DNA of 55,943 nt from a virus. Lineage: Duplodnaviria; Caudoviricetes. This document shows, in pieces, positions 24,807-42,631 of this stretch (positions within the stretch are counted from its first letter, which is position 1; each line of letters starts with the position of its first letter). Position numbers and translations under genes: made by a program. The notes under the pieces were generated by a model. It was given only the letters and a program-made list of their open reading frames with translations, did no database searches and had not been told where the DNA came from. The DNA lies in the IMG/VR virus record IMGVR_UViG_3300047399_000091, positions 1 to 55,943 of that record. One strand, given 5' to 3'.

Positions 24807-24839
24807 CGCTCTGAATTGTAAATTCGCTGTCACGCTCCT

Positions 24840-25010
24840 TCACGCCTGAAACGTGTTAGACCCCGAATTGTTGGGGTCTTTTTTTGCCCTAAGCAGCGCC
24901 AAACTCCACGCCTCTACCCAAACATTGTAAGGGTCTTTCAACAGATCGTTATTTCCGGTGCGGTCGAGCAGCGCGATCCAGTCTTTGTATTCTTGCTCCA
25001 TGCTATCCAT
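24840..25010 (-). CDS. Hypothetical 56-aa protein (not in ORF track)
   Basis: MDSMEQEYKDWIALLDRTGNNDLLKDPYNVWVEAW...; overlaps the dnaE stop. Confidence 0.55.
   Translation of the reverse strand: MDSMEQEYKDWIALLDRTGNNDLLKDPYNVWVEAWSLALLRAKKDPNNSGSNTFQA
24858..24885 (+). terminator. Terminator at convergence of structural and replication blocks
   Basis: AGACCCC-gaattgtt-GGGGTCT then T6. Confidence 0.8.
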
Positions 25011-27729
25011 TTTCTATAACCTTCCATTTCTCTATTTGCATCATTCGGATTCCATTCTTGCCCATGTGCCCCCGAGCGAGAATCACTGCGCCAATAGGCA
25101 CGGATTCCAATATCTCTTTGCCCATTTTTTCGTAATCTTTTCGACGAACGGTAAGAATCGCTAGTCCTGTGTCGTCTTTAACTGTTATGTTCAGCCAATA
25201 ACGGAACTCTCGATCGTAATCCGTGATTACGCCTCCACGCTTCATCACGTTGCCTGTTTCCAGTGCATCTCGCAAGTTTTTCTCTGCCAGCATACCCAAA
25301 ACAACAACTTCTGAACCGTCAGCCTCAAGGTCATTGCACTTGGTCAAAACAGAACCCTCTTTTAGCCCGTGCTTACGAGGATTTTCGTACCAATCTCCGA
25401 ATCTTGCGGTGAACGGGTATGGGTCTGGCCATTTGAGCTTTGGATTCTCGAGCTTAGCAATTATACTTGGAGGCAATTGTTTTTTGGTAATGCGTGAATC
25501 CAGTATTTTTTGAGCCATCTTTGGACCAATACCGTGAACAGCGATAAGCCCACCATAAATTGCGTCTCCTTTAGCTGCCCAGCTGGCTTCCGAACGATCT
25601 TTGTCGAACGCAACGTATTTGAATCCTTCTGCTGTTATCTCCCTGAGGAGTTTGAGGACAGCATCATCATCGGAGGTGTGGCGGAGGGAAGCTGCACTGA
25701 ATTGCAATGGATGGTAATATTTCAGCCAAGCTGTCCAAGCCGAGATAACGGAGTAGGCTGCAGCGTGTGCTTTAACGAAAGCGTAAGACCCTGCATGCAT
25801 CATTGAGTTCCAGACCTCAAGCGCTGCTTCTCGATTTATATCCTGCTTCTCAGCGCCAGCTAAGAACTTGTCTCTGAATTGGTCGAAATATTCTTTCCCG
25901 AGTGATTTCGACATCGCTCTCCGCAGGGCGGTCAATTCTGGCCAGCCGAGCAAACCAATATCTCTGCCTAAAAACAGGATCTGCTCTTGGTAAACCACCA
26001 CACCTTCTGTCTGTTCTGTCCAGCGCTTATGAATGTCGTGGTAATAGGTCGGTGTGTCCAGTCCCCTCCGAACATCTAGGAACTTTTTGGCTCCACCAGA
26101 CTGAAGTGGTCCAGGTCTTGCGAGAGAAGTGAGTGCGACAATGTCGTTAAAGTTCCGCACCTCGAACTGTCTCAAAAGCTGCCTAGCAGCATCGCCTTCG
26201 AGCTGGAAAACACCTGTGATTTTCTGGCTATTGAGCAGTTTGTAGATGTTCGGATCGTTGACGTCGATGTCGGTTATTTTTTTCCCGACCTCGTCTATGG
26301 TTTCCTGCACGATGTCGAGTGTTTTCAGACCGAGCGCGTCGAGCTTCATCAGGTTGAGCGATTCTGCCTGATATTTGTCGATCTGAGAAATCCCCTCCGA
26401 AGTCACCGAGCAGTAATCAGCCACAGGGGTGTTGCAAATGATCACGCCTGCAGCGTGCACTCCTGCGTGAGAGGCGTGCCCCTCCAATGCGCCTGCATTC
26501 CTGAATCCTGGGTGCTTTTCCAATAGCTCTCGCCCAGCCTTGAGTGATTCCATCGTATCAGAAAGACAAAAGGCTGCGCGCGAATCGCCTGAAGAGCGCT
26601 CGATCATGTTGTCTCGAATTTCAGAGGTTTCCCAGACAGGAATCCGCATGCGCTTGCCCACGTTGGCTAAGATTGATTTGGGCTTCAGCTTGTTCACGTT
26701 TCCGAGTCTGGCAATGCTTTGCTCGCCATATTTCCCTTTGAGATAGTCGAAAAGTTCATCTCGGCGATCTCCTGGAAAATCCATATCGATATCGGGTAGG
26801 TCGATACGAGTCACGTCCACGAACCGCTCAAAAAGCAACCCATGCTCAATTGGGTCGAGCTCTGTGATTCCGAGCAGATAGCAAATAATCGACCCAGAAG
26901 ACGAACCGCGTCCTGGACCCACTAACATTCTGCCTCGCGCCCAGCGAATTAGGTCGTAAACCATGAGAAAGTAAGACTCGAACTGTTTCTCTCGGATAAC
27001 AGCCAATTCTCTTTGTAGCCTGGCTTCGTATTCCTCACCGAAACCGGTTGGAAAGCGCCATGGAATACCTTTCCTTGCCTCGGCTTCCAAATCGCCTTCT
27101 ACGACCATATTCTTGGCTACAGGCAGGGTCACTTTTTCGAATTTTTCAGCCAGCTGCTCCCAAGAGATAGAAATCGGGAAAATTTCATCAATTTCACGTT
27201 GCGACCACCAATGCTGAGAATGTGCTCCCAAACGCACACCGAGCAGCTCAGCATATTTTCGGTCAGTTGGAGCTGGATAGCGCACGTCGGAAACAAAGAA
27301 CAACGGCAGCTTTTTCGAACGAGCCTGCTGAATGTTCATTTTGTTCTTCAGAGAGTTCAACGGGTGCAAATCGAGAACCACGTCTTCTGCTTTGATCTTT
27401 TCAAGATCAGCGGTATACGGAAAAACGAGCAGATTGCTGGAGAATTCAGTTTCGTAGGTTATGCCGGCACTGTGCCTGTAAAGTTCCCGCAGACCTTCTT
27501 GATTTTTAGCCAGAACTTTGATCGAGCGCTCTTCGTCGCCGACCTTCAGCTCTGCGCCAAGAATAGGCTGAATTTCAGCTTTTTCTGCAGCCTTGAAAAA
27601 CGGAACATGACCCCAAGTGCCAATGTCGCAGATGGCGGCTTTTTTGTACCCAAGCTGGCTGGCTCGTGCTACGACTCTGCCAATCGGTCCAAAACAATTA
27701 CCAAAGGTGAATTCAGTTCTTGTAATCAT
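25003..27729 (-). CDS. dnaE: Family C DNA polymerase (Pol III alpha-like)
   Basis: GPGRGSS, LLFERF, PDIDMD catalytic motif, KLDALGL, GVFQLE, RPGPL, YQEQ, C-terminal OB-like region; degenerate PHP. Confidence 0.95.
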   Translation of the reverse strand: MITRTEFTFGNCFGPIGRVVARASQLGYKKAAICDIGTWGHVPFFKAAEKAEIQPILGAELKVGDEERSIKVLAKNQEGLRELYRHSAGITYETEFSSNLLVFPYTADLEKIKAEDVVLDLHPLNSLKNKMNIQQARSKKLPLFFVSDVRYPAPTDRKYAELLGVRLGAHSQHWWSQREIDEIFPISISWEQLAEKFEKVTLPVAKNMVVEGDLEAEARKGIPWRFPTGFGEEYEARLQRELAVIREKQFESYFLMVYDLIRWARGRMLVGPGRGSSSGSIICYLLGITELDPIEHGLLFERFVDVTRIDLPDIDMDFPGDRRDELFDYLKGKYGEQSIARLGNVNKLKPKSILANVGKRMRIPVWETSEIRDNMIERSSGDSRAAFCLSDTMESLKAGRELLEKHPGFRNAGALEGHASHAGVHAAGVIICNTPVADYCSVTSEGISQIDKYQAESLNLMKLDALGLKTLDIVQETIDEVGKKITDIDVNDPNIYKLLNSQKITGVFQLEGDAARQLLRQFEVRNFNDIVALTSLARPGPLQSGGAKKFLDVRRGLDTPTYYHDIHKRWTEQTEGVVVYQEQILFLGRDIGLLGWPELTALRRAMSKSLGKEYFDQFRDKFLAGAEKQDINREAALEVWNSMMHAGSYAFVKAHAAAYSVISAWTAWLKYYHPLQFSAASLRHTSDDDAVLKLLREITAEGFKYVAFDKDRSEASWAAKGDAIYGGLIAVHGIGPKMAQKILDSRITKKQLPPSIIAKLENPKLKWPDPYPFTARFGDWYENPRKHGLKEGSVLTKCNDLEADGSEVVVLGMLAEKNLRDALETGNVMKRGGVITDYDREFRYWLNITVKDDTGLAILTVRRKDYEKMGKEILESVPIGAVILARGHMGKNGIRMMQIEKWKVIENG

Positions 27730-28246
27730 TGAGCGTTTTGTAGCATTCCCAGAGCGCTTTTACGTCATCAAGAGCGCGGTGTGTTTGGGCAAGGGGTTTG
27801 CCTTGCGTGTGCTCGTAGAGTTCTACCAGTTTCATGCGCCTGCCTTTTATGTGCATGGTAGCGTCCACGGTGCAGATCTGATTCGGCGGGAAAGGGAATC
27901 TCCTCTCCCAGCCTGTTCTGAGCAGCTCGAAATAGAGCACGTCTCTATCGAACGCGAGATTGTGAGCAACAAGTGTATGAGTGCCGAGGAAAAAGCTCGC
28001 CAGCTCCGGAATCAGCTCTTCGATCGTGCGCTTGCCTTTTAGGTCTTCTGGTTTCAGACCTGTTATCTTCGTGATCTCGGCAGAGATTTCCTGTTTCGGA
28101 TCGACGAGCTCCCAAAGTTCAGAGACGATGCTGCCTTTGTCGCTAACTTTTATCGCGCCGATTTCTATAATTTTCGGCTGAAGCTCTAAATCCGACGAGC
28201 TGGGAAGCGTCAAACCCGTTGTCTCAAAATCAAGCAGTATTATCAT
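27713..28246 (-). CDS. dnaQ: DEDDh 3'-5' exonuclease (epsilon-like)
   Basis: DFETTG, HNLAFD, HRALDD motifs; overlaps dnaE start. Confidence 0.92.
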   Translation of the reverse strand: MIILLDFETTGLTLPSSSDLELQPKIIEIGAIKVSDKGSIVSELWELVDPKQEISAEITKITGLKPEDLKGKRTIEELIPELASFFLGTHTLVAHNLAFDRDVLYFELLRTGWERRFPFPPNQICTVDATMHIKGRRMKLVELYEHTQGKPLAQTHRALDDVKALWECYKTLNDYKN

Positions 28247-28529
28247 CAGTCAGCTCTTCGAGCATAGCTGCGTAAACAGAGAGGTCGTGCGCAGAGTCTT
28301 GATGACCGCCACGAGTTAAATTCTCCGAATAGCGAGTGAGCTTGCTAAGGCATTGGATAAAAATCCCCAAACGGTTGAATTCCTCAACTGTGTAAAGACT
28401 CAGTCCATTTGGGAAAATCGCAGACATTACGCGACCAAACTTTTTGTAATTGTCGCCGTAGAGTTTATTGCGCTGCTCGTAAGTTTCTGCGCATTCGCGT
28501 AAAAGTTCTGGAACAGATTTTTTGCTCAC
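28230..28529 (-). CDS. DUF6378/Nmad1-like all-alpha protein (putative nucleotide pyrophosphatase)
   Basis: GTG start with GGAG RBS; RNKLYG..KLTRY..HQDSAHDLSVYAAM. Confidence 0.6.
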   Translation of the reverse strand: MSKKSVPELLRECAETYEQRNKLYGDNYKKFGRVMSAIFPNGLSLYTVEEFNRLGIFIQCLSKLTRYSENLTRGGHQDSAHDLSVYAAMLEELTDDNTA

Positions 28530-28954
28530 ACCAATACTCCTCTCAGTCCGAGTTCTTTGCACATTTCGATTATATCTTCCCTGTCGTCGTAAGCTCGTTC
28601 TATTTCAAACATCATCAGCAGATCGGATATAAGTTTGCGCTTCAAATCTACAGAGTGCTGATGATTACCATTGGGGCGCATTATCAGCGCCTGATATTTG
28701 AAGTTTTTCTCTCTGAGCCAGTTTGTTGTCTTTTGGCGCACGTATTCTGGTCGCGCTGTGACGAAGAAAACTGGCACCGGAGACTCATCAACGATGTGAC
28801 GATTTATCGCAGAATCTCCGTCACAATGAATGTGATAAGCGTGATATTTGTTTTCACCATCCTCGGCTTGAGGATCAATGAGCCATTGGCGCCATTTGTC
28901 GTCGCTCACAGTGCTGTCTAAATCAACAACGCGTATAGTTCCTGAATTCATCAT
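28526..28954 (-). CDS. HAD phosphatase (T4 PNK 3'-phosphatase-like)
   Basis: DLDST, VTARP, LIMRP, K, YDDR motifs. Confidence 0.85.
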   Translation of the reverse strand: MMNSGTIRVVDLDSTVSDDKWRQWLIDPQAEDGENKYHAYHIHCDGDSAINRHIVDESPVPVFFVTARPEYVRQKTTNWLREKNFKYQALIMRPNGNHQHSVDLKRKLISDLLMMFEIERAYDDREDIIEMCKELGLRGVLV

Positions 28955-29298
28955 TGTTCAAACTCCTCCCAAGAAAGGCAATAAGCCAGCACCGCGCCTT
29001 GATTGTCGCGGAGCTCGACGACTTGTATTTTTTCAGAGTCAGGTTCTGCGTTACGAGCAGCGTGAGCCATGTGCAGTGTGGTGTATCCTCTGCGAATGAT
29101 TGCTGCTTCTGAAGGTGCACGAGCTATATTCGAAGCTCCTGGCTCGGGCGGATCATTGCGCCAAGCAATTATTTCTGCAACAGTGGGTCTAGGTTTTTCC
29201 TCCTCTAGAATTTCATCTTTGTATTCCTCATGCAGTTTTTGCTCTTCGGCAGTTTCCTGCGGGGTTATTTTTTCTGGCTCCTGTTTCTGCTTTTTCAC
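28951..29298 (-). CDS. Hypothetical protein
   Basis: In operon, overlaps next gene; charged N-terminus. Confidence 0.55.
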   Translation of the reverse strand: MKKQKQEPEKITPQETAEEQKLHEEYKDEILEEEKPRPTVAEIIAWRNDPPEPGASNIARAPSEAAIIRRGYTTLHMAHAARNAEPDSEKIQVVELRDNQGAVLAYCLSWEEFEQ

Positions 29299-29313
29299 TT
29301 TGTCTTTTCCTTG

Positions 29314-31401
29314 TTAAAAGTTCGATTCTTCCCAGTTCTTGTTAACTCTCAGCTGTTGACGCCGCCTGCCTTCTGTTACGATTTCTAACCTTCCCTCCTC
29401 AAGCCATTCGCGGACTTTTGGCTTTGCGCGGGTTCTGCCTACGTGCTGACCGTTGACTTCGTAACCGTAAGTGGAAACAGTATCCACAGAGCACGCCTCA
29501 CCACTTTTACGCAGGAAATCGATCGCCTTCTTGACGCCTTCCCAAAGAGTGTCGTCAAACTCTCCGTCCTGCTCGTCTTCGGGGTTGTACGTTACGAATG
29601 TGTTATTCTCGATCGCCATAAGGTGCACAGGCGGCTGCGGTGCGGCGTAAGAGGCTTTGTCGAAAGAAAGCTGCAGGTAACGAGTTTTCGACATAGCATC
29701 ATATGGACGGAAATTTATCAAGTTCCAGTGCGCTCTGGTTAAATCGCCGAATGCTGCTGCACCACGCGTCGTATGCATATCAGCCTCACCAGCTCTTGCA
29801 CCTGCTTTTGTTGTATGCGTGACGTAAGTGACAGCGCAGTTCAGCTGATCAGCCAAAATTCCAGACGCCTTCATCATTGCGCTGGCAGAATCATTGCCAC
29901 CAGCTTCGTCGAAACCGAACAAGGTCATCGGATCGAAAATAAGCCAGCTCAAGGAGTCTTCTTTGTAATAACGGATGATCTCGTGCACCGTTTTAGTTAT
30001 ATCGTAGTGGTTTGTGCGCTGAACCTGCGTTGAAAGACTTATGGTATCGGTTTCAAAATCAACAAATGCGACATTTTCAAATGCAGCGTATTTTTCTTCC
30101 TCGCTCGACCACTCCATGTGGTTAGCGAGCATTATCAGTCTTCTCTGAAGCTGACGCTTTGGGTCTTCAGCGTTCATTACCAAAACTTTTCCAGGACGTT
30201 TTATTTCGTACTTGTCGAAAAGTTTTCTACCAGCTGCCACGTGCAACGCCATCCAAAGCGTGATCTGAGTTTTACCGGTTCCTCCAGGAGCAGCGAAAGT
30301 GGTGCGGTGTTTCGGGAGAATGTCCTCGATGATAAACTCCATTGCTGGAGGAGGGGTGCGGAAAAGGTCTGCAGCGGAATGCTTATTGTTTTCCCAGCCG
30401 AGGAGTCTTTTTACCTTCACTTCCTCCTCGGTCGGAGGGAGATCGTCAAATGCTTGCACAAAGAGCTTCAGCTGCACGCCAACACTTTGCGCCTGAGCGA
30501 TCATTGTGTCGAGGGTGTATTTGCTCTTTGTTGGTAGCATGGCTTGTCGGAAGAACAAGTCTGCCATCGTTTTGTCATCGGCTTTAGCGTTGTAGTTCGG
30601 AGACGCTTTAGACCATTTTACATATTCCTCGAAAACATTCTTGTCGTTCGGAAAAGCACGTCCGAGTGCCAATCCAACCTTGAACCACTGATCGCGCTCG
30701 TCTGGAGAGAACACCTGTAGCAGCGTGCGAACCTGGGTGAGTGTGTCGCCTTCTACCTGCCCCTTTATGTAAGCAAGTTCCTCTTCGCTCGCCAACGCGG
30801 AGGAAAGGTTGTTGATGCCTTTTTCGTCGCAACGACGTTGATATTCAGAAAGAGCCTCTTCCGCCAAATCTGTTATGTCGGTTACTTCGTCGGGACATTC
30901 TGTGTTGGGCAGAAGCTCGCCTGTTATCGCGACAAAACGCTTATCTGGATAAACTTCTATTGCAACACCTTTGGCACCCGCCTTGCGTGCATGACCGCGC
31001 CCAATTATATGGACACCTGTCCCCGAGTGCGACACCTCGACAAATGCTTTGGAGGCAATCGCTTTGTATGTGAATTTCTCAGCCCATTCGTCTACGAATT
31101 TCCCGCCTTCTCCAAGGACGTCGTCCAAATCGATCAGCAGCGAACCATTCGTGATAGCGAACCCAAGACCTGTGTAATGCGGTATGTGGTTTTTTAACGA
31201 TTCTAGCGCTTCGTCGTGCGAGCCCATGGCTGCAAAATCCTGCGCAGTTTCCATGGTTCCAGAGCGCCGCCGGTGCGTTGTTGGGTAGTAGGGGACTTTG
31301 CGTCCGTCCTCCTCCCGCCACACGAGCCAACGCTTCTCTGCCATTAGGTCGTCGGGCAGATGCATCTCGCGTGTTTGTCGTTCTAGTCGAATTATTCTCA
31401 T
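29314..31401 (-). CDS. Primase-polymerase (NrS-1-like AEP) + PriCT-2 + RecA-type (AAA_25) helicase
   Basis: IDLDD, EVSHSGTGVH, EVY..RFVAITG; DQWFKVGLAL; APGGTGKT, IFDP, RGAAAF. Confidence 0.88.
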   Translation of the reverse strand: MRIIRLERQTREMHLPDDLMAEKRWLVWREEDGRKVPYYPTTHRRRSGTMETAQDFAAMGSHDEALESLKNHIPHYTGLGFAITNGSLLIDLDDVLGEGGKFVDEWAEKFTYKAIASKAFVEVSHSGTGVHIIGRGHARKAGAKGVAIEVYPDKRFVAITGELLPNTECPDEVTDITDLAEEALSEYQRRCDEKGINNLSSALASEEELAYIKGQVEGDTLTQVRTLLQVFSPDERDQWFKVGLALGRAFPNDKNVFEEYVKWSKASPNYNAKADDKTMADLFFRQAMLPTKSKYTLDTMIAQAQSVGVQLKLFVQAFDDLPPTEEEVKVKRLLGWENNKHSAADLFRTPPPAMEFIIEDILPKHRTTFAAPGGTGKTQITLWMALHVAAGRKLFDKYEIKRPGKVLVMNAEDPKRQLQRRLIMLANHMEWSSEEEKYAAFENVAFVDFETDTISLSTQVQRTNHYDITKTVHEIIRYYKEDSLSWLIFDPMTLFGFDEAGGNDSASAMMKASGILADQLNCAVTYVTHTTKAGARAGEADMHTTRGAAAFGDLTRAHWNLINFRPYDAMSKTRYLQLSFDKASYAAPQPPVHLMAIENNTFVTYNPEDEQDGEFDDTLWEGVKKAIDFLRKSGEACSVDTVSTYGYEVNGQHVGRTRAKPKVREWLEEGRLEIVTEGRRRQQLRVNKNWEESNF

Positions 31402-31418
31402 TGGCGCACAGTTCGATC

Positions 31419-31453
31419 AAATAAAAGAGGAGCCGAGTTTCCCCAGCTCCTCT
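31419..31453 (-). terminator. Terminator after SSB gene
   Basis: mRNA GAGGAGCUGGG-GAAA-CUCGGCUCCUC-UUUU. Confidence 0.8.
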
Positions 31454-31461
31454 CCTGACAC

Positions 31462-32016
31462 TTAGAAGTTTTCGAGCTCTTTGTCGCTAACTTCACCGAA
31501 TGCATTCAGATCGGGTTTACCACCCGACAGTGCCTCTCCGTCTTTAACTTTTTGATACGCACGGAGTCCGAACGAAACGCCTGTGTTGCCAGAGGCATCA
31601 TAAGCGTAGGTCGTCCACTGCACGCGTCCAAACTGTCCTGCATAAACCTCTGCTTGGTCGAGGATTTCTTGCCTTTCCCGATCAATCACCGCAGGTGCAT
31701 ATTTGGAGCTGAAGGTCGCCATGGTGCTGCCTTCGGGAGCCCAACCAAACCACTCGGGTTTTGTTTCCGTGAGAGTGAACGGATAACCACTCTTCGGCTC
31801 GAGGGATTTGCGCTTGACACCTGCAGGCACTTTTGTTCCAAAGCGCTCGGTTGCTGCATTTTGAATCGCATCCTCCATCGCTTTGTATTCTGGAGAGGCT
31901 TGCGCTTTTTTGTCAAAAACGATAACCAACGACCAGACGTTCTCGCCACGATCATTTTGCTGCGGCTTGAACAAGTGAGGGAAAGAAATACGACCAATCG
32001 GACTAATGTTACTCAT
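31462..32016 (-). CDS. ssDNA-binding protein (DUF2815, T7 gp2.5-like)
   Basis: RISFPHLFKP, VYAG, GNTGVSFGL..QKVKDGEALSG, acidic tail ending in F. Confidence 0.88.
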   Translation of the reverse strand: MSNISPIGRISFPHLFKPQQNDRGENVWSLVIVFDKKAQASPEYKAMEDAIQNAATERFGTKVPAGVKRKSLEPKSGYPFTLTETKPEWFGWAPEGSTMATFSSKYAPAVIDRERQEILDQAEVYAGQFGRVQWTTYAYDASGNTGVSFGLRAYQKVKDGEALSGGKPDLNAFGEVSDKELENF

Positions 32017-32036
32017 TGCGAATTACTCCTTACACA

Positions 32037-32085
32037 TATGGCTGGTTAAGAATGGTTCGCGACCTACAGCCATAAGTCGCGAACC
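32037..32085 (-). promoter_or_regulatory. Predicted H-type pseudoknot in SSB leader
   Basis: 10-bp stem 32054-63/32076-85; loop 32067-74 complementary to 32037-44, 5 nt before the AAGGAG SD. Confidence 0.65.
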
Positions 32086-32093
32086 GCACTGCA

Positions 32094-33065
32094 TCATTCT
32101 TCTTCAGGGAACTCGTTTGCGTCAAATTCTTTGCGTACGAGCGTGAGTGGTCCAGGCTTCTTGACAGTTAGCTCGTCGAGATTGTGCCCTGCCTTTTCAG
32201 CTTCTGCGAGCGTCATGGCTTTCAAAATCATTGGGATGTTGACGTCAGTGCGCCAAACTCTCCTACCCTGACCCTGGACAACAGCGTATCCGCGTGGTGG
32301 TTTGCTTATTGCGAAAGCGTTGAGCTGCTCGAACCAATCGAGGATGCGCTTTTTATTTTCTATCGCCCAGAGCATAGTTTCTTCGTCAATTTCCTGCACA
32401 CTACGGAAAGCGATCTGTGCAGCGAGTTGTGCCTCAGATTTGCGCTCTGAGCAAATCGGTGAAGCTGGGCAATACTGGCAGTGGTCGCCAGCTTTGCGAG
32501 GCGCTGACGGATTTTCAATTAAAGCATCCGCAGCTGCAAGTATCGTATTTACAAGAGACTCGAACAATTTGCGCGACATGGTCGAGGAGCGGATTCCGCC
32601 AGCACGCGGTTGCACGATGTGCAATTGCACTTTCTTAACCTTGAGGCTATAAGTTTTTATTGCAGCGGCTGCATAAATCGCCAGCTGAGTATTGCCTTGC
32701 GCTTCGACGCGGTTGTATCCGTATTTCAAATCGAAAACATCCAACACACCTTTGTGGTAAACGACAGCGTCCGGCGTGCCGTGGATTTCCTCGGTTAGCC
32801 AAACTCGTTTTTCGACCCAAAGCTGTGCGCCTTTACGCTGAGCAGCTTGCCAGACACGATCAGTGTAGAGCTCTAACCCTTCATACGGACAGCCGGTGCT
32901 ATCTGCGCCGAAAAGTATTTTTGCCGCCCATTCATGAGCGTCAGTTCCTTCCTTGGCGGCAGCGGACGAAGGCGGCTGTGGCGCTTTTTTTGAAAGCCAA
33001 TAGCTTCCAGGACAAGCCAGCCAACGAGCTGACCCTGACGGAGAAAGTTCAGCGTGTTCGCTCAT
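32094..33065 (-). CDS. DUF2800 Cas4-like PD-(D/E)xK nuclease
   Basis: HAELSPS..RWLACPGS, GTPD, DLKYG, QLAIYA, HCQYCP..C. Confidence 0.88.
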   Translation of the reverse strand: MSEHAELSPSGSARWLACPGSYWLSKKAPQPPSSAAAKEGTDAHEWAAKILFGADSTGCPYEGLELYTDRVWQAAQRKGAQLWVEKRVWLTEEIHGTPDAVVYHKGVLDVFDLKYGYNRVEAQGNTQLAIYAAAAIKTYSLKVKKVQLHIVQPRAGGIRSSTMSRKLFESLVNTILAAADALIENPSAPRKAGDHCQYCPASPICSERKSEAQLAAQIAFRSVQEIDEETMLWAIENKKRILDWFEQLNAFAISKPPRGYAVVQGQGRRVWRTDVNIPMILKAMTLAEAEKAGHNLDELTVKKPGPLTLVRKEFDANEFPEEE

Positions 33066-33400
33066 AGCTCAATCACATTCAAAATGTATTTCAGGTAAAT
33101 TTTATCCCACACAAGTGTCTGCACGCAATCTACATTTTTATTTCGGAGCAGCAAACCTGTTGCGAGCGTGGCGAGCGGAGATCCATTCGGCAGTATGTAA
33201 TCTTGCTCTTGGTCAAAATCCGCCAAACGCTGTTCAGCTGCCTTTACATCTTCGCGCTTGTTCGGGTTCATCTCGTGATCGAACACCGAAACCAATGAGC
33301 CGAATTGCTCTGCGGGTCGTAGGTCGACGATTGGTTTTAGCTCCTTGGTGTAACTGTCTTTGCGCATGCGGTTGGAGGTTACAAAAACTCTTGGCATCAA
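33062..33400 (-). CDS. Hypothetical protein
   Basis: ATGA-coupled on both sides; PAEQFG..DYILPNGSP. Confidence 0.65.
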   Translation of the reverse strand: MMPRVFVTSNRMRKDSYTKELKPIVDLRPAEQFGSLVSVFDHEMNPNKREDVKAAEQRLADFDQEQDYILPNGSPLATLATGLLLRNKNVDCVQTLVWDKIYLKYILNVIEL

Positions 33401-37439: not shown

Positions 37440-38267
37440 ATGGATTTCTTCGCCGACATGGTTGACGACATCCCCCAAGTGACCCAAGCGGCGACGGTGC
37501 AAACCGTCACGCTTTTCAAAGAGAACTGCAAAAAGTGCAACGGCACGGGTCGCTGGGTGGGCTGGAGCGTTTCCCGCACCTGCTTTAGCTGCAACGGTCG
37601 CGGCTACCACGAGTTCAAAACTCCCGCCGCCCAACGCGCTCAGAACCGCGAGCGTGCCGCTGCCAAAAAAGAGCAAGCCTCTGCCGAAGCGATTGAGTCG
37701 TTCAAAGCGGAGTATCCCGCCGAATACAGCTGGATGGTTACGTCGGCTCCGCGTTTCGACTTCGCTCAGTCGATGATCGAAGCGGTGCGCAAATACGGCT
37801 CGCTGACCGAGCGGCAGCTCGCCGCTGTGCAGAAATGCGTTGCGAAATCTGCGGAGCGTGCCGCCGAGCGCCAGCAGCGCGTGGAGCATGCCCCCAGCGT
37901 TTCGGTAGAGGCGATCGAAACCGCCTTCGCCAATGCTAAAAACGCTGGAATTCAGCGTCCTAAGCTCCGGCTCGATACCTTTGTTTTCTCGCCAGCGCCC
38001 AGCGCGGGTAAGAACCCCAACGCCATTTATGTCAAAGAAAACGGCGAATACCTCGGGAAAGTGTCTGGAGGCAAGTTCTACGCAGTGAGAAACTGCTCCG
38101 GAGACGCGCAGGGACGTGTTTTAGCAGCCGCTAGCGACCCAGCTAATGCAGCGGTAGCCTACGGCAAAAAATTCGGCTCCTGCGCTGTTTGCAACCGCGA
38201 GCTGAGTGACCCTGCCTCGATCGAGCGGGGCATTGGTCCGATCTGCGCAGAAAGATTCGGCTGGTGA
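37440..38267 (+). CDS. Zn-finger protein with C-terminal DUF6011-like domain
   Basis: CKKCNGTG, CFSCNGRG; CAVCNRELSDPASIERGIGPIC. Confidence 0.8.
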   Translation: MDFFADMVDDIPQVTQAATVQTVTLFKENCKKCNGTGRWVGWSVSRTCFSCNGRGYHEFKTPAAQRAQNRERAAAKKEQASAEAIESFKAEYPAEYSWMVTSAPRFDFAQSMIEAVRKYGSLTERQLAAVQKCVAKSAERAAERQQRVEHAPSVSVEAIETAFANAKNAGIQRPKLRLDTFVFSPAPSAGKNPNAIYVKENGEYLGKVSGGKFYAVRNCSGDAQGRVLAAASDPANAAVAYGKKFGSCAVCNRELSDPASIERGIGPICAERFGW

Positions 38268-38957: not shown

Positions 38958-39122
38958 ATGAAAATCCTCACCCAATTTGTTTATCCCCCGATCCCGATCC
39001 GTTGCTACGATTGGGAAGCCATTCGGGAAGGCTATGACGAAGGCGACCCCGTTGGCCACGGATCCACCGAACAAGAAGCAATTGAAGCACTGATTGAACT
39101 CGAACTCGAAAGGAGCGAATAG
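38958..39122 (+). CDS. Hypothetical protein
   Basis: PPIPIR..DW..G.GSTEQEAI. Confidence 0.65.
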   Translation: MKILTQFVYPPIPIRCYDWEAIREGYDEGDPVGHGSTEQEAIEALIELELERSE

Positions 39123-39124
39123 CA

Positions 39125-39862
39125 ATGGAACAAATAACTCTACCGCAGGCTGCAACGGATGGCGTCAAATTCGAGAAACTCTCGGAGAAGTACGACCTCA
39201 TCAGCACCGAAGCTGTTATCAACCTTATGCGCGACGAAGGCTACACCATCACCCAAGCCAACACACTCAAGCCGCGCAAACGCGACCCGCGCACTGTGCG
39301 GCATTTTGTACGCATGCGTCACGAGTCTTACCTGAAGGAGATCAACGGTTCTGTGCCAGAAATCCTTGTCATCAACGCCAACGACGGCAGCTCCTCGTTG
39401 CGTATGGAGGCGGGACTTTTCCGCTTTATCTGCTCCAATGGTCTGATCGTTAAGTCGCAGGAGATCGATTCTGCGCGCATTCGGCACGTGGAGGTCACGG
39501 CTGAGAGAGTGCTTGAGGAGGCCAACCGCGTCATCAAATCGGCGCAGGAATCTGCACGCCGGATCGATTTGTTCAAACAGCGCTTGCTCAACAAGGAGGA
39601 GGAAATAAAGTTTTCCGTGATGGCTTCCGCGCTCTGGGGTGGTCGCGTTATGCCGCACTCCCTGCTGGAAGCTCGCCGCGTCGAAGACCAGGGCTCAGAC
39701 CTCTGGCGGGTGTTCAATCGTGTGCAGGAAAACCTCGTCAAAGGTGGCGTCGTCGGGCGCTCGCCCAATGGACGCAACACCCGCACGCACGGCATCCGCG
39801 CAATGGACAACACCGTCAAAGTCAACATGAAGCTCTGGGAACTCGCGGAGGATCTGCTGTGA
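39125..39862 (+). CDS. DUF932/DUF945 family protein
   Basis: INANDGSSS..GLFRFICSNGL; DLWRVFNRVQENL. Confidence 0.85.
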   Translation: MEQITLPQAATDGVKFEKLSEKYDLISTEAVINLMRDEGYTITQANTLKPRKRDPRTVRHFVRMRHESYLKEINGSVPEILVINANDGSSSLRMEAGLFRFICSNGLIVKSQEIDSARIRHVEVTAERVLEEANRVIKSAQESARRIDLFKQRLLNKEEEIKFSVMASALWGGRVMPHSLLEARRVEDQGSDLWRVFNRVQENLVKGGVVGRSPNGRNTRTHGIRAMDNTVKVNMKLWELAEDLL

Positions 39863-40767
39863 TCATACTGGGTGCGGGACTGAGCGGATTGATTGCGGCG
39901 GCGGTCAACCCGCAAGCTCGAGTGCTGGAAGCGCTAAGCAAAGACCGCCAGCAGCATCGCGCGGTTTTGCGCTTCCGCAGCGCGGCGGTCGGAGACGCAG
40001 TGGGGATCCCTTTCCGCAAGATCAGAGTTTACAAAAACATCTGGATGGAGTACAAGTTCCACGAGCCGAACATTCAGCTTTCGAATTTGTATTCGCACAA
40101 GGTGACGGATGGTTATTTCGATCGGTCGATCTGGAAAACAGAATCTGTTGAACGATACATCGCGCCAGAAGATTTCATCCTGCAGCTGATCGATCAGGTT
40201 GGCGACCGAGTGGAATGGGAAACTCCGGTGCACGAGCTCCCGAAAAACTACCCCATAATAAGCACAATCCCGATGAACGCTATGCTCAAGCTGGCGGGTC
40301 TCGAGCCGCGCAAAGAAGTGGCGTTCAAGTTCTCGCCCATAAGGGTGCAGCGCTTCAGGGTGAAGGCTGCGGACGTTTTCCAAACAATCTATTACCCCTC
40401 GCCAGCGACTGCGGTTTATCGCGCTTCGATCACGGGAGACCTTCTGATTGTGGAGTCGGTTGAGGGTGTTCCGGAAATCTCTCCAGAGCTCACAGAAGTG
40501 CTGGATTCATTCGGTTTGGCGGAAAGCGACCTAGAAGTTATCGACAGCAACCACAAACAATCTTACGGGAAGATCGCTCCGATTGACGAATCTTTCCGCA
40601 GGTATGCTGTAGAAAAACTTTCACAAAAACACGGTGTTTATTCTCTTGGGAGATTTGCAACATGGCGCAATATTCTGCTGGACGACGTTCTGCAAGACCT
40701 AACAGTGATCAAGAAGCTGGTGAATGCGGACTCGTACACGAGAAAACTGCAATCACTACGGGACTAG
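39859..40767 (+). CDS. FAD/NAD-binding oxidoreductase-like protein
   Basis: N-terminal GAGLSGL Rossmann motif, ISTIP, C-terminal SLGRFATW. Confidence 0.8.
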   Translation: MIILGAGLSGLIAAAVNPQARVLEALSKDRQQHRAVLRFRSAAVGDAVGIPFRKIRVYKNIWMEYKFHEPNIQLSNLYSHKVTDGYFDRSIWKTESVERYIAPEDFILQLIDQVGDRVEWETPVHELPKNYPIISTIPMNAMLKLAGLEPRKEVAFKFSPIRVQRFRVKAADVFQTIYYPSPATAVYRASITGDLLIVESVEGVPEISPELTEVLDSFGLAESDLEVIDSNHKQSYGKIAPIDESFRRYAVEKLSQKHGVYSLGRFATWRNILLDDVLQDLTVIKKLVNADSYTRKLQSLRD

Positions 40768-40893
40768 ACTGTTTCGATCGCGGCGTCGAGTTCGCCTGCA
40801 ACATCATTGAAGATTACATCATCAGTCAACAATTCACAACACAACAGCTGCTGCAAATAACAGCGGTTCTTAGAAAGAAAGTGAGCAAACAAA

Positions 40894-41631
40894 TTGAAAA
40901 TTGAACTCATTGATTACACCGGAGTCGGCAGAACAGACCAACAATGGCACGCGGCTGACGTTATGATCTTCACCAAGCAAACTCGACTCAATCTTTCTTC
41001 AGGACTGATGGAGGAGATAAAAGCGTGGCCAACTGAAAAGAAACAAACCGAGCTGGACTACATGGCCAAAACGATCAAGAGCTCTTGGGAGTTTGTGGAC
41101 GTGACCTTCCTGCTCAGCGGGATTAGCCGTGCTGTAGCGCAGCAGGTAACGCGCACCCGCACCGCTTCTTACGCGATGCAGTCGATGCGGGTGACGAATG
41201 CCTCTGAGCTGGGCGTTGTGGAAGGGAAAAAGCTCGAAGGGATGCAGCTCGAACTCTATCGGGCTGCGGTGAACTCTGCTAAACACTCTTACAAGGAGCT
41301 CGTTGAAATGGGTGTTGCGCTCGAAGACGCAAGAGGCGTGCTGCCGCTCAACACGGAATGCAATATCGTTTGTAAATACAATTTCCGCTCCGTCACCGAC
41401 TTGATCAAGGCGCGCAAATCGCTCCGCGCTCAAGGCGAATACGGCGAGATCGTGCGCGAGATGGAGCGCCTGATTAACGCGGTATGGCCATGGGCAGAGC
41501 CGTTTTTCGAATCCGACAAAGACATCGCCATCGGCATGCTCGAAGACATCGTCAAATCGATCGGATTCACAGTCGGGAAAGGAATGGGCTGGGAGATCGC
41601 AAAAGCCATCGATTTGATTCGTAAAAGCTAA
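40894..41631 (+). CDS. thyX: Atypical flavin-dependent thymidylate synthase (ThyX-like)
   Basis: SRAVAQQVTRTRTASYAMQSMR (RxRx7S with H to T), EDARGVLP, AQGE; TTG start. Confidence 0.8.
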   Translation: MKIELIDYTGVGRTDQQWHAADVMIFTKQTRLNLSSGLMEEIKAWPTEKKQTELDYMAKTIKSSWEFVDVTFLLSGISRAVAQQVTRTRTASYAMQSMRVTNASELGVVEGKKLEGMQLELYRAAVNSAKHSYKELVEMGVALEDARGVLPLNTECNIVCKYNFRSVTDLIKARKSLRAQGEYGEIVREMERLINAVWPWAEPFFESDKDIAIGMLEDIVKSIGFTVGKGMGWEIAKAIDLIRKS

Positions 41632-41671
41632 CAAGGGCAGTCAAACAAACGAGCAGGAGAAAAGTCTTTTT

Positions 41672-41830
41672 ATGACACAGAAAAATCCTATGTGTCAAAC
41701 GTGTCAAAGAGAAATTGGAGTCAAAAAAGTATTAACTGCGAATGGAAAGTCAAAACGCTGGAAGTGTTTGAGTTGCATCAACAAGGTTTCTATCAGTTTC
41801 ATTAGGATCAAAAAAAGGACAATCAAATGA
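41672..41830 (+). CDS. Small Zn-ribbon protein (not in ORF track)
   Basis: CQTC...CLSC; AGGAG upstream; ATGA overlap with next gene. Confidence 0.6.
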   Translation: MTQKNPMCQTCQREIGVKKVLTANGKSKRWKCLSCINKVSISFIRIKKRTIK

Positions 41831-42099
41831 GACAAAAGGTATACAAAATAAGTGAATTTCCTTTGAACTGGAAAAATGAAAAAGTAAAAAATGATCCTGT
41901 AAACCATCCCAAGCATTACACCGCACATCCAAGTGGGGTTGAGTGCATTCAGATTACGGAGTGTTTCAATTTTTGCAGGGGCAATGCAATCAAGTATATC
42001 TGGAGGGCAGGTGAGAAAGGCGACGAGGTTGAGGATTTGAAGAAGGCGCGGTGGTATATCGACCGTGAGATTAAACGTCTAACAGGAGAGCAGAAATGA
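41827..42099 (+). CDS. DUF3310 (T7 gp1.7 nucleotide kinase-like)
   Basis: DPVNHPKHY..ECI..GNAIKYIWRAG.K..EDLKKARWY. Confidence 0.88.
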   Translation: MRQKVYKISEFPLNWKNEKVKNDPVNHPKHYTAHPSGVECIQITECFNFCRGNAIKYIWRAGEKGDEVEDLKKARWYIDREIKRLTGEQK

Positions 42100-42437
42100 G
42101 CATCGAATGGCTGATTTATCTTGCAGATGTTGTTGGTAGTATTTATGTGTTATTTATTTTTTCTGGGTTCGTCATCGGAGTTATTTCAGTAGGCTGGATG
42201 GTCGAAGCAACAATAGACCATGCAAACAAAAAATTTAAATATTTTTATTCGATTGGAATTTCTGCATCTTTGTTGCTTTTTTTGGTGGCGGCACTAATAC
42301 CATCCAAGCAAGCTATTTACCTGATAGCAGGTGCATCAATAGCTAAAGACTTGGCTAAAACAGAAACCGCAAAGAAAGTTGAAGCCATTATCGAATCTGA
42401 GCTAGATAAACTTATCCACGAAGGAGAGCGGAAATGA
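42096..42437 (+). CDS. Membrane protein
   Basis: Two TM helices then IPSK. Confidence 0.7.
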   Translation: MSIEWLIYLADVVGSIYVLFIFSGFVIGVISVGWMVEATIDHANKKFKYFYSIGISASLLLFLVAALIPSKQAIYLIAGASIAKDLAKTETAKKVEAIIESELDKLIHEGERK

Positions 42438-42631
42438 AAGGCTACTCAGAACATCACAGGCAGCAACTGAAGAAAGCACTGGAGTATCTGGATAACCGCA
42501 AGATCAACATCATGAAGCACAACTTCAAACCTACAAACGCAGCACAGACGGATGTAGCTGCAACGATGGCGCGTTACCGGCAGCAAACACAGGGGCAGCA
42601 AATCATTAGAGAAGTTCGTAAATTTAAATAA
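42434..42631 (+). CDS. Hypothetical protein
   Basis: ATGA overlap, AGGAG RBS. Confidence 0.6.
   Translation: MKGYSEHHRQQLKKALEYLDNRKINIMKHNFKPTNAAQTDVAATMARYRQQTQGQQIIREVRKFK

Follow-up and report, generated by a model that had tools for sequence, protein, structure and literature searches.

What does a phage gain from a flavin-dependent thymidylate synthase, ThyX, that has lost conserved histidines of its active site and is encoded directly behind a second flavoprotein? The question is raised by two neighbouring genes in an IMG/VR virus record of 55,943 bp, here called the window (the whole stretch of DNA that was analysed), which is nearly complete with a CheckV completeness of 98%. The first gene (39859-40767, plus strand) starts with GTG and encodes a 302-residue protein with the N-terminus MIILGAGLSGL, a predicted FAD-binding Rossmann protein of the UDP-galactopyranose mutase (UGM), protoporphyrinogen oxidase (PPO) and amine oxidase fold. 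The second (40894-41631, plus strand) starts with TTG and encodes a 245-residue ThyX variant that carries Ile53, Thr79, Ala85 and Val91 in the numbering of the Thermotoga maritima enzyme. ThyX is regarded as needing no partner enzyme and as having an invariant signature, the motif RHRx7S. The first-pass annotation of this DNA had observed that the ThyX gene directly follows a Rossmann flavoprotein gene and had proposed a ThyX-fold route to a modified deoxynucleoside monophosphate. The adjacency stands, with 126 nt between the two open reading frames (ORFs), and our analysis extends it to a coupling of ThyX variant and flavoprotein that goes far beyond chance; the proposed route is partly supported, and the pair has a concrete chance of being a new pathway.

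Active-site residues of the phage ThyX

The window protein belongs to the ThyX family by profile comparison, with a match to the Pfam family Thy1 (PF02511) at E 3.8e-32 and 112 bits, against a cut-off of 24.8, that covers residues 40-200. It exceeds the cut-off of the NCBIfam equivalog TIGR02170 only just, at 92.9 against 87.9 bits, and alignment to the ThyX families, proposed when the locus was first read, thus returns a distinct variant that nevertheless lies above both thresholds. In a HMMER alignment to T. maritima ThyX (TM0449), from which the 12-residue tag of the PDB chains was subtracted, the window motif RTRTASYAMQS falls on RHRIASYNELS and IKSSWEF falls on the H(53)ETPFEH stretch; both motifs had been picked out of this ORF from the letters alone, together with the loss of conserved histidines and the retention of Arg and Ser. 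The alignment agrees and carries the losses further, since His53 is replaced by Ile61 of the window protein, His59 by Phe67, His79 by Thr88, Asn85 by Ala94 and Tyr91 by Val100. Like the canonical enzyme, with which it shares the domain, the variant retains Glu58, Gln75, Arg78, Arg80, Ser88, Arg90, Arg147, Arg165 and Arg174 (T. maritima numbering). The Arg, Gln and Glu residues in this set are ones that we take to be FAD- and dUMP-binding.

The same pattern recurs in a census of 119 distinct relatives of the variant, drawn from 151 IMG/VR loci. His53 is replaced in all 119, by Ile in 117 of them; position 85 is Ala in every relative; and position 91 is Val, Ile, Thr or Met throughout, with Tyr in none. 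Position 79 is more permissive (Thr in 102, Ser in 14, Asn in 2, His in 1), giving RTR, RSR, RNR and RHR forms of the motif, and the Ser position of the RHRx7S signature is occupied by Ser, Thr or Ala. Retention is equally uniform: Arg78, Arg80, Gln75 and Glu58 are kept in 119/119 and Arg90 in 118/119, while Arg147, Arg165 and Arg174 are kept in all 117 relatives whose alignment extends that far. For comparison we assembled 31 canonical cellular ThyX sequences, sampled from metagenome-assembled genomes (MAGs) and one phylum with one locus from an unpublished genome left out, and four canonical phage sequences (Bacillus Wes44, Halorubrum HRTV-14, Clostridium 39-O and Thermus TMA). His53, His79 and Tyr91 are present in 31/31 of the cellular and 4/4 of the phage sequences, position 85 is Asn or Ser in the canonical sequences examined, and the RHR signature that the window protein lacks is found in T. 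maritima ThyX and in all 35. A further substitution, His178 to Arg, was considered as a distinctive mark and dropped, as Arg also occupies this position in 22 of the 31 canonical cellular sequences.

Three of the replaced positions have a shared role in the canonical enzyme. According to PMC11940539, His53 is a conserved histidine that packs against the pteridine ring of folate in the oxidised complex and against the isoalloxazine ring when this is reduced, and Tyr91 and Asn85 hold it in place by hydrogen bonds. Because His53, Tyr91 and Asn85 are all replaced, the variant has lost the whole His53 gate together. The RTR triplet, which had been put forward as the marker of the variant, does not hold up in that role: Ile53, Ala85 and Val91 are also present in RSR and RNR members and in one RHR member, L116, and these forms too are paired with the flavoprotein. 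Within the variant clade, L116, which has the flavoprotein upstream, and L187 both keep His at the RHR position together with Ile53, Ala85 and Val91, and the loss of His79 is therefore secondary to the loss of the His53/Tyr91 gate. At the other end of the protein, the ThyX variants of Pbunavirus (L002:6001-6918) and Wifcevirus (L003:6001-6804) end in 60-80 additional residues with conserved cysteines, which the window protein lacks.

A maximum-likelihood tree of 78 rows places all 42 variant rows on one side of a single branch with support of 97/97 and a stem length of 1.98. The variants form one distinct clade, large and confined to phages, and are not a one-off. The RSR protein of mycobacteriophage Onyinye is recovered as a long-branch sister to this clade (86/93), a placement that the tree tool flags as unsafe. 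Onyinye (L086 3490-10609) encodes a related ThyX variant with RSR, Leu53, Ala91 and a Cys-rich C-terminal tail, and the genes beside it are a split DnaE, an NT5C-type deoxy-pyrimidine 5'-nucleotidase of the HAD family and a different GxGxxG protein of 263 residues annotated as an oxidoreductase. In an hhalign comparison of this protein (gp78) with the flavoprotein profile, only the first 26 residues aligned, at a probability of 47%. The Onyinye locus may be an analogous cassette.

Coupling to a partner flavoprotein

Co-occurrence of variant and oxidoreductase across phages had been named at the outset as the check on their association, and the IMG/VR relatives bear it out. A profile of the ThyX variant found 556 relatives and a profile of the flavoprotein found 433, 80 loci being kept in each case. 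The flavoprotein gene lies upstream on the same strand in 78 of the 80 loci found with the ThyX profile, and the ThyX gene lies downstream in 77 of the 80 found with the flavoprotein profile. The five loci that break this pattern are all explained by contig ends. Three are complete records (G001, G004 and G005) that have both genes, split over the ends of the contig, and two are fragments (10% and 48% completeness) that are cut at the gene. Flavoprotein and ThyX variant are an obligate pair, and neither gene stands alone in any testable record. The gap between them has a median of 107 nt and is at most 200 nt in 93 of 149 cases, with the genes often overlapping or abutting, and the pair is found in phages from 37 to 207 kb. 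The canonical phage ThyX genes served as a control, and no flavoprotein was found within 10 kb at any of the four loci.

The GenBank phages give a similar picture. There the ThyX query matches 495 records and the flavoprotein query 362, and the two tallies are identical for phages of Pseudomonas (292/292), Escherichia (27/27), Serratia (9/9) and Xanthomonas (6/6). ThyX hits also occur in phages of Halorubrum, Bacillus and Clostridium, none of which is among the ten groups named for the flavoprotein; nine further groups of that tally are unnamed. A megablast search of positions 39000-42500 of the window against GenBank phages returned no match.

The pair is the core of a phage-specific nucleotide cassette. 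We joined both locus sets into a union of 154 related loci, which are not all distinct (6 locus ids are common to both sets and 10 further contigs appear under two ids). Downstream of ThyX and on the same strand these loci hold a HAD-family phosphatase in 125 cases, a DUF6378 protein in 139, a DnaQ-like exonuclease in 124 and a DnaE polymerase in 114, and 94 loci have the full set of six genes, 93 of them in the order flavoprotein, ThyX, HAD, DUF6378, DnaQ, DnaE. The cassette is present in Pbunavirus BrSP1 (flavoprotein gp85, ThyX gp79), Wifcevirus Mansfield, Ralstonia phage PY059YO380, Cronobacter phage Ss1 and the 207-kb Rhizobium phage RHph_Y65, and is also borne by Wifcevirus Bas98-101 and Xanthomonas phage XcP1. 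The gene set that the first-pass annotation tentatively placed in PB1-like myoviruses is indeed this cassette, found in Pbunavirus and in Wifcevirus as well. These two genera of myoviruses, with genomes of 66-72 kb, share the order of flavoprotein, ThyX variant, HAD (with DUF6378), exonuclease and DnaE; they differ from the window in protein sequence (31-44% identity), in the Cys-rich C-terminus of their ThyX and in the position of the block behind ThyX, which in the window is displaced and lies on the other strand. In RHph_Y65, gp191 (L164 6428-7390), annotated as a polysaccharide deacetylase, is a homologue of the flavoprotein (E 6.5e-61, 43% identity) and sits 1.5 kb upstream of the ThyX variant, with genes for phosphoheptose isomerase, dUTPase and ribonucleotide reductase nearby.

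What kind of flavoprotein the partner might be is less readily read from its sequence. It matches no Pfam family at E <=0.01, GLF (PF03275) included, and no NCBIfam family; its match among the PHROGs is phrog_4828, labelled 'unknown function' (E 1.3e-89), and a profile search of PDB sequences gave a chance match only (E 0.38). The glycines of the GxGxxG motif (Gly5, Gly7 and Gly10) and Glu24 are invariant in 44 homologues, along with many Arg, Lys and Tyr residues. The family comprises 3010 proteins at E <=0.001, with no Pfam domain among the 120 matches listed, and the nearest Atlas clusters are 98-100% viral and called 'hypothetical protein'; the nearest named clusters carry Amino_oxidase and NAD_binding_8 (score 0.92). 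A scan of species-genome contigs with the flavoprotein profile found 6 phage-sized MAG contigs only and gave no trusted host clue. On these comparisons the family is almost wholly viral.

The predicted structure is more informative. An AlphaFold2 (AF2) model of the flavoprotein (pLDDT 87.2, pTM 0.80) finds its best fold match by VIA-align in the Trypanosoma cruzi UGM 4dsg_A (Z 19.2, rmsd 3.6, 290 aligned residues, 19% identity), followed by protoporphyrinogen oxidases at Z 16.2-16.9 and then by amine oxidases and bacterial UGM/UNGM at about 15 (14.9-15.4). Foldseek likewise returns UGMs at the top (E ~1e-9), interspersed with halogenases and amine oxidases. UGM and ThyX both use the N5 of reduced flavin as a nucleophile. 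The annotators of phage Mansfield named their flavoprotein UDP-galactopyranose mutase and reported an HHpred match to the E. coli UGM 1I8T, which was not reproduced here.

One might accordingly take the flavoprotein for a genuine sugar-nucleotide mutase, or for some other enzyme with no part in ThyX chemistry, one that supplies, for example, a furanose donor with which DNA or the host surface is glycosylated and that is merely co-operonic with an ordinary divergent ThyX. The leading position of UGM among the fold matches and the Mansfield assignment favour such a role, as does the sugar-like character of the Pbunavirus modifications discussed below. We nevertheless consider it improbable. The flavoprotein and the UGMs (4dsg, 3hdq and E. 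coli Glf) share an N-terminal FAD-binding Rossmann motif, but the phage protein is 60-200 residues shorter, has 14-19% identity to them and is embedded among nucleotide and replication genes rather than glycan genes. In addition to the missing GLF match, an hhalign comparison of its profile with E. coli Glf aligned the GxGxxG Rossmann motif only (18 residues, probability 3.7%), and the PPO and amine oxidase folds score nearly as high as UGM, at Z 15-17 over 270-280 residues, although the phage protein is set apart from that superfamily too by the lack of a Pfam match and by its almost wholly viral family. Finally, the pairing holds wherever it can be tested, over the full range of genome sizes and with genes that often overlap or abut, and the residue census shows that its ThyX partner is not an ordinary one.

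Thymidylate or a modified pyrimidine

The most likely reading, to which we would give a probability of roughly 45%, is that the pair is a two-component flavin-dependent thymidylate synthase making plain dTMP. The variant ThyX would still move the one-carbon unit via the flavin N5 to C5 of dUMP, and the half-reaction of the canonical His53 site, in which NAD(P)H reduces FAD and/or the methylene donor docks, would be handed to the partner flavoprotein or reshaped around it. Flavoprotein and ThyX would then function as a two-component enzyme whose product, dTMP, supplies the phage's own DnaE replicase, while the nucleotide pool would be the target of HAD and DUF6378. Several features lead us to favour plain dTMP: every residue that presumably binds dUMP or FAD is kept, the variant passes the thyX equivalog cut-off of TIGR02170, and it is the sole thymidylate synthase homologue in the window and in all five cassette relatives searched. 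The ThyX of the jumbo phage RHph_Y65, one of these five, moreover sits with dUTPase and ribonucleotide reductase, and the DNA modification of Pbunavirus, to which we turn now, affects part of the thymidines at specific sites and so points to a post-replicative step. Prediction of a complex of two ThyX chains with one flavoprotein chain gave scores of 0.00 and 0.00 in a run without controls, and speaks neither for nor against binding.

Pbunavirus enters the argument because its DNA is modified. The accessible text of PMC12191111, also on bioRxiv, reported a hypermodified thymidine in 2025 with no known biosynthetic genes; it describes PB1-like Pseudomonas phages as commonly used therapeutics, the DNA of phage F8 as resistant to enzymes with TG in their sites, and novel nucleosides of 362 and 390 Da in F8 and 14-1 that replace about one quarter of the thymidines by liquid chromatography-mass spectrometry. 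Pbunavirus DNA is also a target of END nucleases, and native nanopore sequencing of it fails and is cured by amplification, according to a 2026 preprint. Wifcevirus resists restriction-modification systems without a known mechanism. Our literature search found no paper that links ThyX or the flavoprotein to the Pbunavirus modifications and none that describes the pair, and modification in cassette-bearing phages is not treated in the papers on the Xanthomonas FoX phages, vB_Eco4M-7, cyanophage PA-SR01 or the Durham collection.

These observations bring in the alternative that the cassette makes a non-canonical pyrimidine nucleotide. In this mechanism the variant ThyX would still pass a methylene to dUMP, but water or another nucleophile would trap the exocyclic-methylene intermediate in place of its reduction, yielding 5-hydroxymethyl-dUMP or a similar dUMP substituted at C5. 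Editing or processing of the pool would fall to the flavoprotein, HAD and DUF6378, and the product, built into DNA by DnaE, would serve as the handle for thymidine hypermodification. We regard it as a serious but tentative possibility. It draws on the clade-wide remodelling of His53, Tyr91, Asn85 and His79, of which His53, His79 and Tyr91 are invariant in the 35 canonical sequences, and on the long stem branch of the clade; it also gives a place to the obligate partner, the usually linked HAD phosphatase and the linked, dedicated polymerase, and is in keeping with the match of the HAD protein beside the Onyinye RSR variant to the NT5C deoxy-pyrimidine 5'-nucleotidase family. By mass arithmetic, 5-hydroxymethyl-deoxyuridine (5-hmdU, 258) joined to a tetritol (122) with loss of water gives 362, and joined to a pentose (150) with the same loss it gives 390; the F8/14-1 masses therefore make a handle of the 5-hydroxymethyl type plausible. 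The Wifcevirus resistance points the same way, as do sugar-type enzymes beside the cassette, namely a short-chain dehydrogenase (SDR) in Wifcevirus and phosphoheptose isomerase in Rhizobium phages. In Wifcevirus Mansfield the SDR (adh_short, E 1e-31) and a protein annotated as of the glyoxalase family lie between HAD and DnaQ (L003 7740-9214), and these two could bear on a modification of the sugar-alcohol type.

How phages make such precursors elsewhere is relevant here. The accessible text of PMC13326640 and PMC8989533 presents ThyA-fold phage enzymes, the dUMP and dCMP hydroxymethylases and the flavin-binding 5-hydroxy-dCMP synthase of RB69 and DLP3, as thymidylate synthase homologues that act at the mononucleotide stage and seed DNA hypermodification. 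The cassette ThyX is of another fold, and no ThyA-family gene (PF00303) was found in the window or in any of the five cassette relatives, in a search whose control matched in 10 of 14 genomes; a ThyA-fold source of 5-hydroxymethyl-dUMP is thus not in evidence in these phages, which counts for the non-canonical product. A search for the Tet_JBP dioxygenase (PF12851) of the post-replicative 5mYOX route in the window and four relatives gave no match, but its control also matched nowhere. Our literature search found no ThyX-fold pyrimidine-modifying example for DNA.

Other observations pull against a non-canonical product. The reported TG specificity and the three quarters of thymidines left unmodified are more simply explained post-replicatively, and the accessible text of PMC12191111 mentions no free 5-hmdU peak. 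With the variant as the only thymidylate synthase homologue, such phages would depend on the host for dTMP, and no glycosyltransferase or kinase of known hypermodification pathways is present among the window ORFs scanned. The evidence for this product is also all correlative, and Pbunavirus and Wifcevirus are related genera. In the wider form of the proposal, flavoprotein, ThyX, HAD and DUF6378 together would be a ThyX-fold, flavin-dependent route to C5-functionalised dUMP (5-hydroxymethyl- or alkoxymethyl-dUMP), and hence the missing core of Pbunavirus hypermodification and of unrecognised modifications in other cassette phages, which we think conceivable and short of probable. The first-pass proposal of a ThyX-fold route to a modified nucleotide thus fares unevenly. 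Its basis stands in the distinct variant, the coupling, the PB1-like gene set and the modified Pbunavirus thymidine; as to the product, nothing shows a modified deoxynucleoside monophosphate, the dUMP/FAD arginines are kept, the equivalog cut-off is passed, and partial modification at TG sites fits a post-replicative step better.

A further alternative is that dUMP is not the substrate. The variant would instead act on, for example, dCMP, UMP, or uracil or thymine in a polynucleotide, with the flavoprotein performing a second catalytic step. PolB of polyoxin synthesis is reportedly a UMP-methylating ThyX homologue. The TG specificity reported in Pbunavirus points to action on DNA, and Rossmann-fold flavoenzymes such as TrmFO methylate RNA uracil by the same flavin chemistry, according to the accessible text of PMC8989533. 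This seems unlikely to us, given that the arginines which presumably bind the phosphate and uracil of dUMP are invariant in the variant, and that the top 50 fold matches to the flavoprotein include neither TrmFO nor MnmG, which does not exclude them. The ThyX active site is moreover buried at the subunit interface.

The two-component synthesis of dTMP has its own difficulties. The folds nearest to the partner are those of UGM, PPO and amine oxidases and not of known flavin reductases, and it is a guess on our part to give it a reductive or one-carbon role. Two cultured cassette genera show signs of DNA modification by unknown genes, which fit a non-dTMP product equally well, and the loss of otherwise invariant residues on a long stem could mean a changed product instead of a changed cofactor. 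Our literature search found no experiment on any member of the variant clade. We infer both mechanisms, plain dTMP from two components and a modified dUMP, from a coupling and a set of residue changes that are themselves observed directly. In either case a large phage-only ThyX clade can be defined that has lost its folate- and flavin-gating residues and has no testable record without the flavoprotein, and the prediction is either of a new two-component mode of thymidylate synthesis or of the first ThyX-fold entry into DNA base modification. Were the latter true, unrecognised modifications would extend across more than 550 IMG/VR ThyX relatives and 362 GenBank phage records. For the question of Pbunavirus hypermodification, the pair provides two concrete candidate genes.

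The surrounding window

The remaining cassette genes of the window lie about 12 kb from the pair, on the opposite strand and downstream of a primase-helicase. They are a HAD-family phosphatase of the PNKP-phosphatase type (28526-28954, minus strand; Pfam HAD_PNKP, E 1.7e-9), a helical DUF6378 protein (28230-28562, minus), a DnaQ-like DEDD 3'-5' exonuclease (27713-28246, minus; RNase_T, E 1e-22) and a DnaE-type DNA polymerase III alpha subunit of 908 residues with finger and PHP domains (25003-27729, minus; DNA_pol3_alpha, E 7e-65). All of these had been recognised in the first reading of the letters, as had a DUF3310 protein, and the Pfam searches agree, with the reservation that DUF6378 is below the Pfam cut-off (E 0.0022) and rests on its match to phrog_4889 (positions 238-325, E 3.3e-15). 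The HAD gene aligns to phrog_4889 as well, at positions 7-146; HAD and DUF6378 are separate, overlapping genes in the window and are fused in Pbunavirus gp77 (352 residues, L002:7114-8172), which is annotated 'polynucleotide kinase/phosphorylase'. An AF2 model of the DUF6378 protein (pLDDT 85.8) has no Foldseek match at E <=0.001 and only generic helical hairpins by VIA-align (Z <=7.1), and POU-domain matches in a PDB profile search (E 0.006) were taken as chance.

Relatives of the window at about 80% identity (L004, L005, L006, L009 and L041) keep this block directly after ThyX and on the same strand. To check the gene order, contigs of public sequencing runs (18 runs, Logan contigs) were used. 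Contigs of run X4, which belongs to another study, bridge 24835-26029 and 27020-33173, and the displaced block is therefore a real rearrangement and not a misassembly.

Closer to the pair, a DUF932 protein (39125-39862, plus; E 5.7e-28) precedes the flavoprotein, its stop overlapping the flavoprotein start, and DUF932 is a frequent but not universal upstream neighbour, present in 56 of the 154 related loci. Further upstream, a 275-residue protein (37440-38267, plus) matches phrog_4046, of unknown function, and has a C-terminal DUF6011 domain (E 7e-14) and a weak match, below cut-off, to the DnaJ-type CxxCxGxG zinc finger (E 1.7e-4); no homologue of it was found in the 80 loci gathered with the ThyX profile. 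Just 3' of ThyX lies the DUF3310 protein (41827-42099, plus; Pfam E 1.4e-15, phrog_236 E 2.5e-32), a family type that PHROGs labels 'nucleotide kinase'. It had been counted with the gene set at first, and was dropped as a cassette member on finding DUF3310 in none of the 154 related loci.

The database gene call for ThyX (P0123, 222 residues) begins at Met24 of the ORF described here. Because the 23 residues 5' of Met24 are conserved in 245-residue homologues and in Pbunavirus, where they begin MK(I/V)xLI, the TTG-start ORF of 245 residues is the better call.

Sequencing-run labels suggest freshwater or aquatic samples. In a contig of run X4, position 41632 is joined straight to 42421 with two other letters between, so that the DUF3310 gene and the membrane-like ORF that follows it are skipped, and other joints, in X2 and X3, leave out 41830-42557 and adjoining sequence. 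The DNA 3' of ThyX is a variable region among close relatives.

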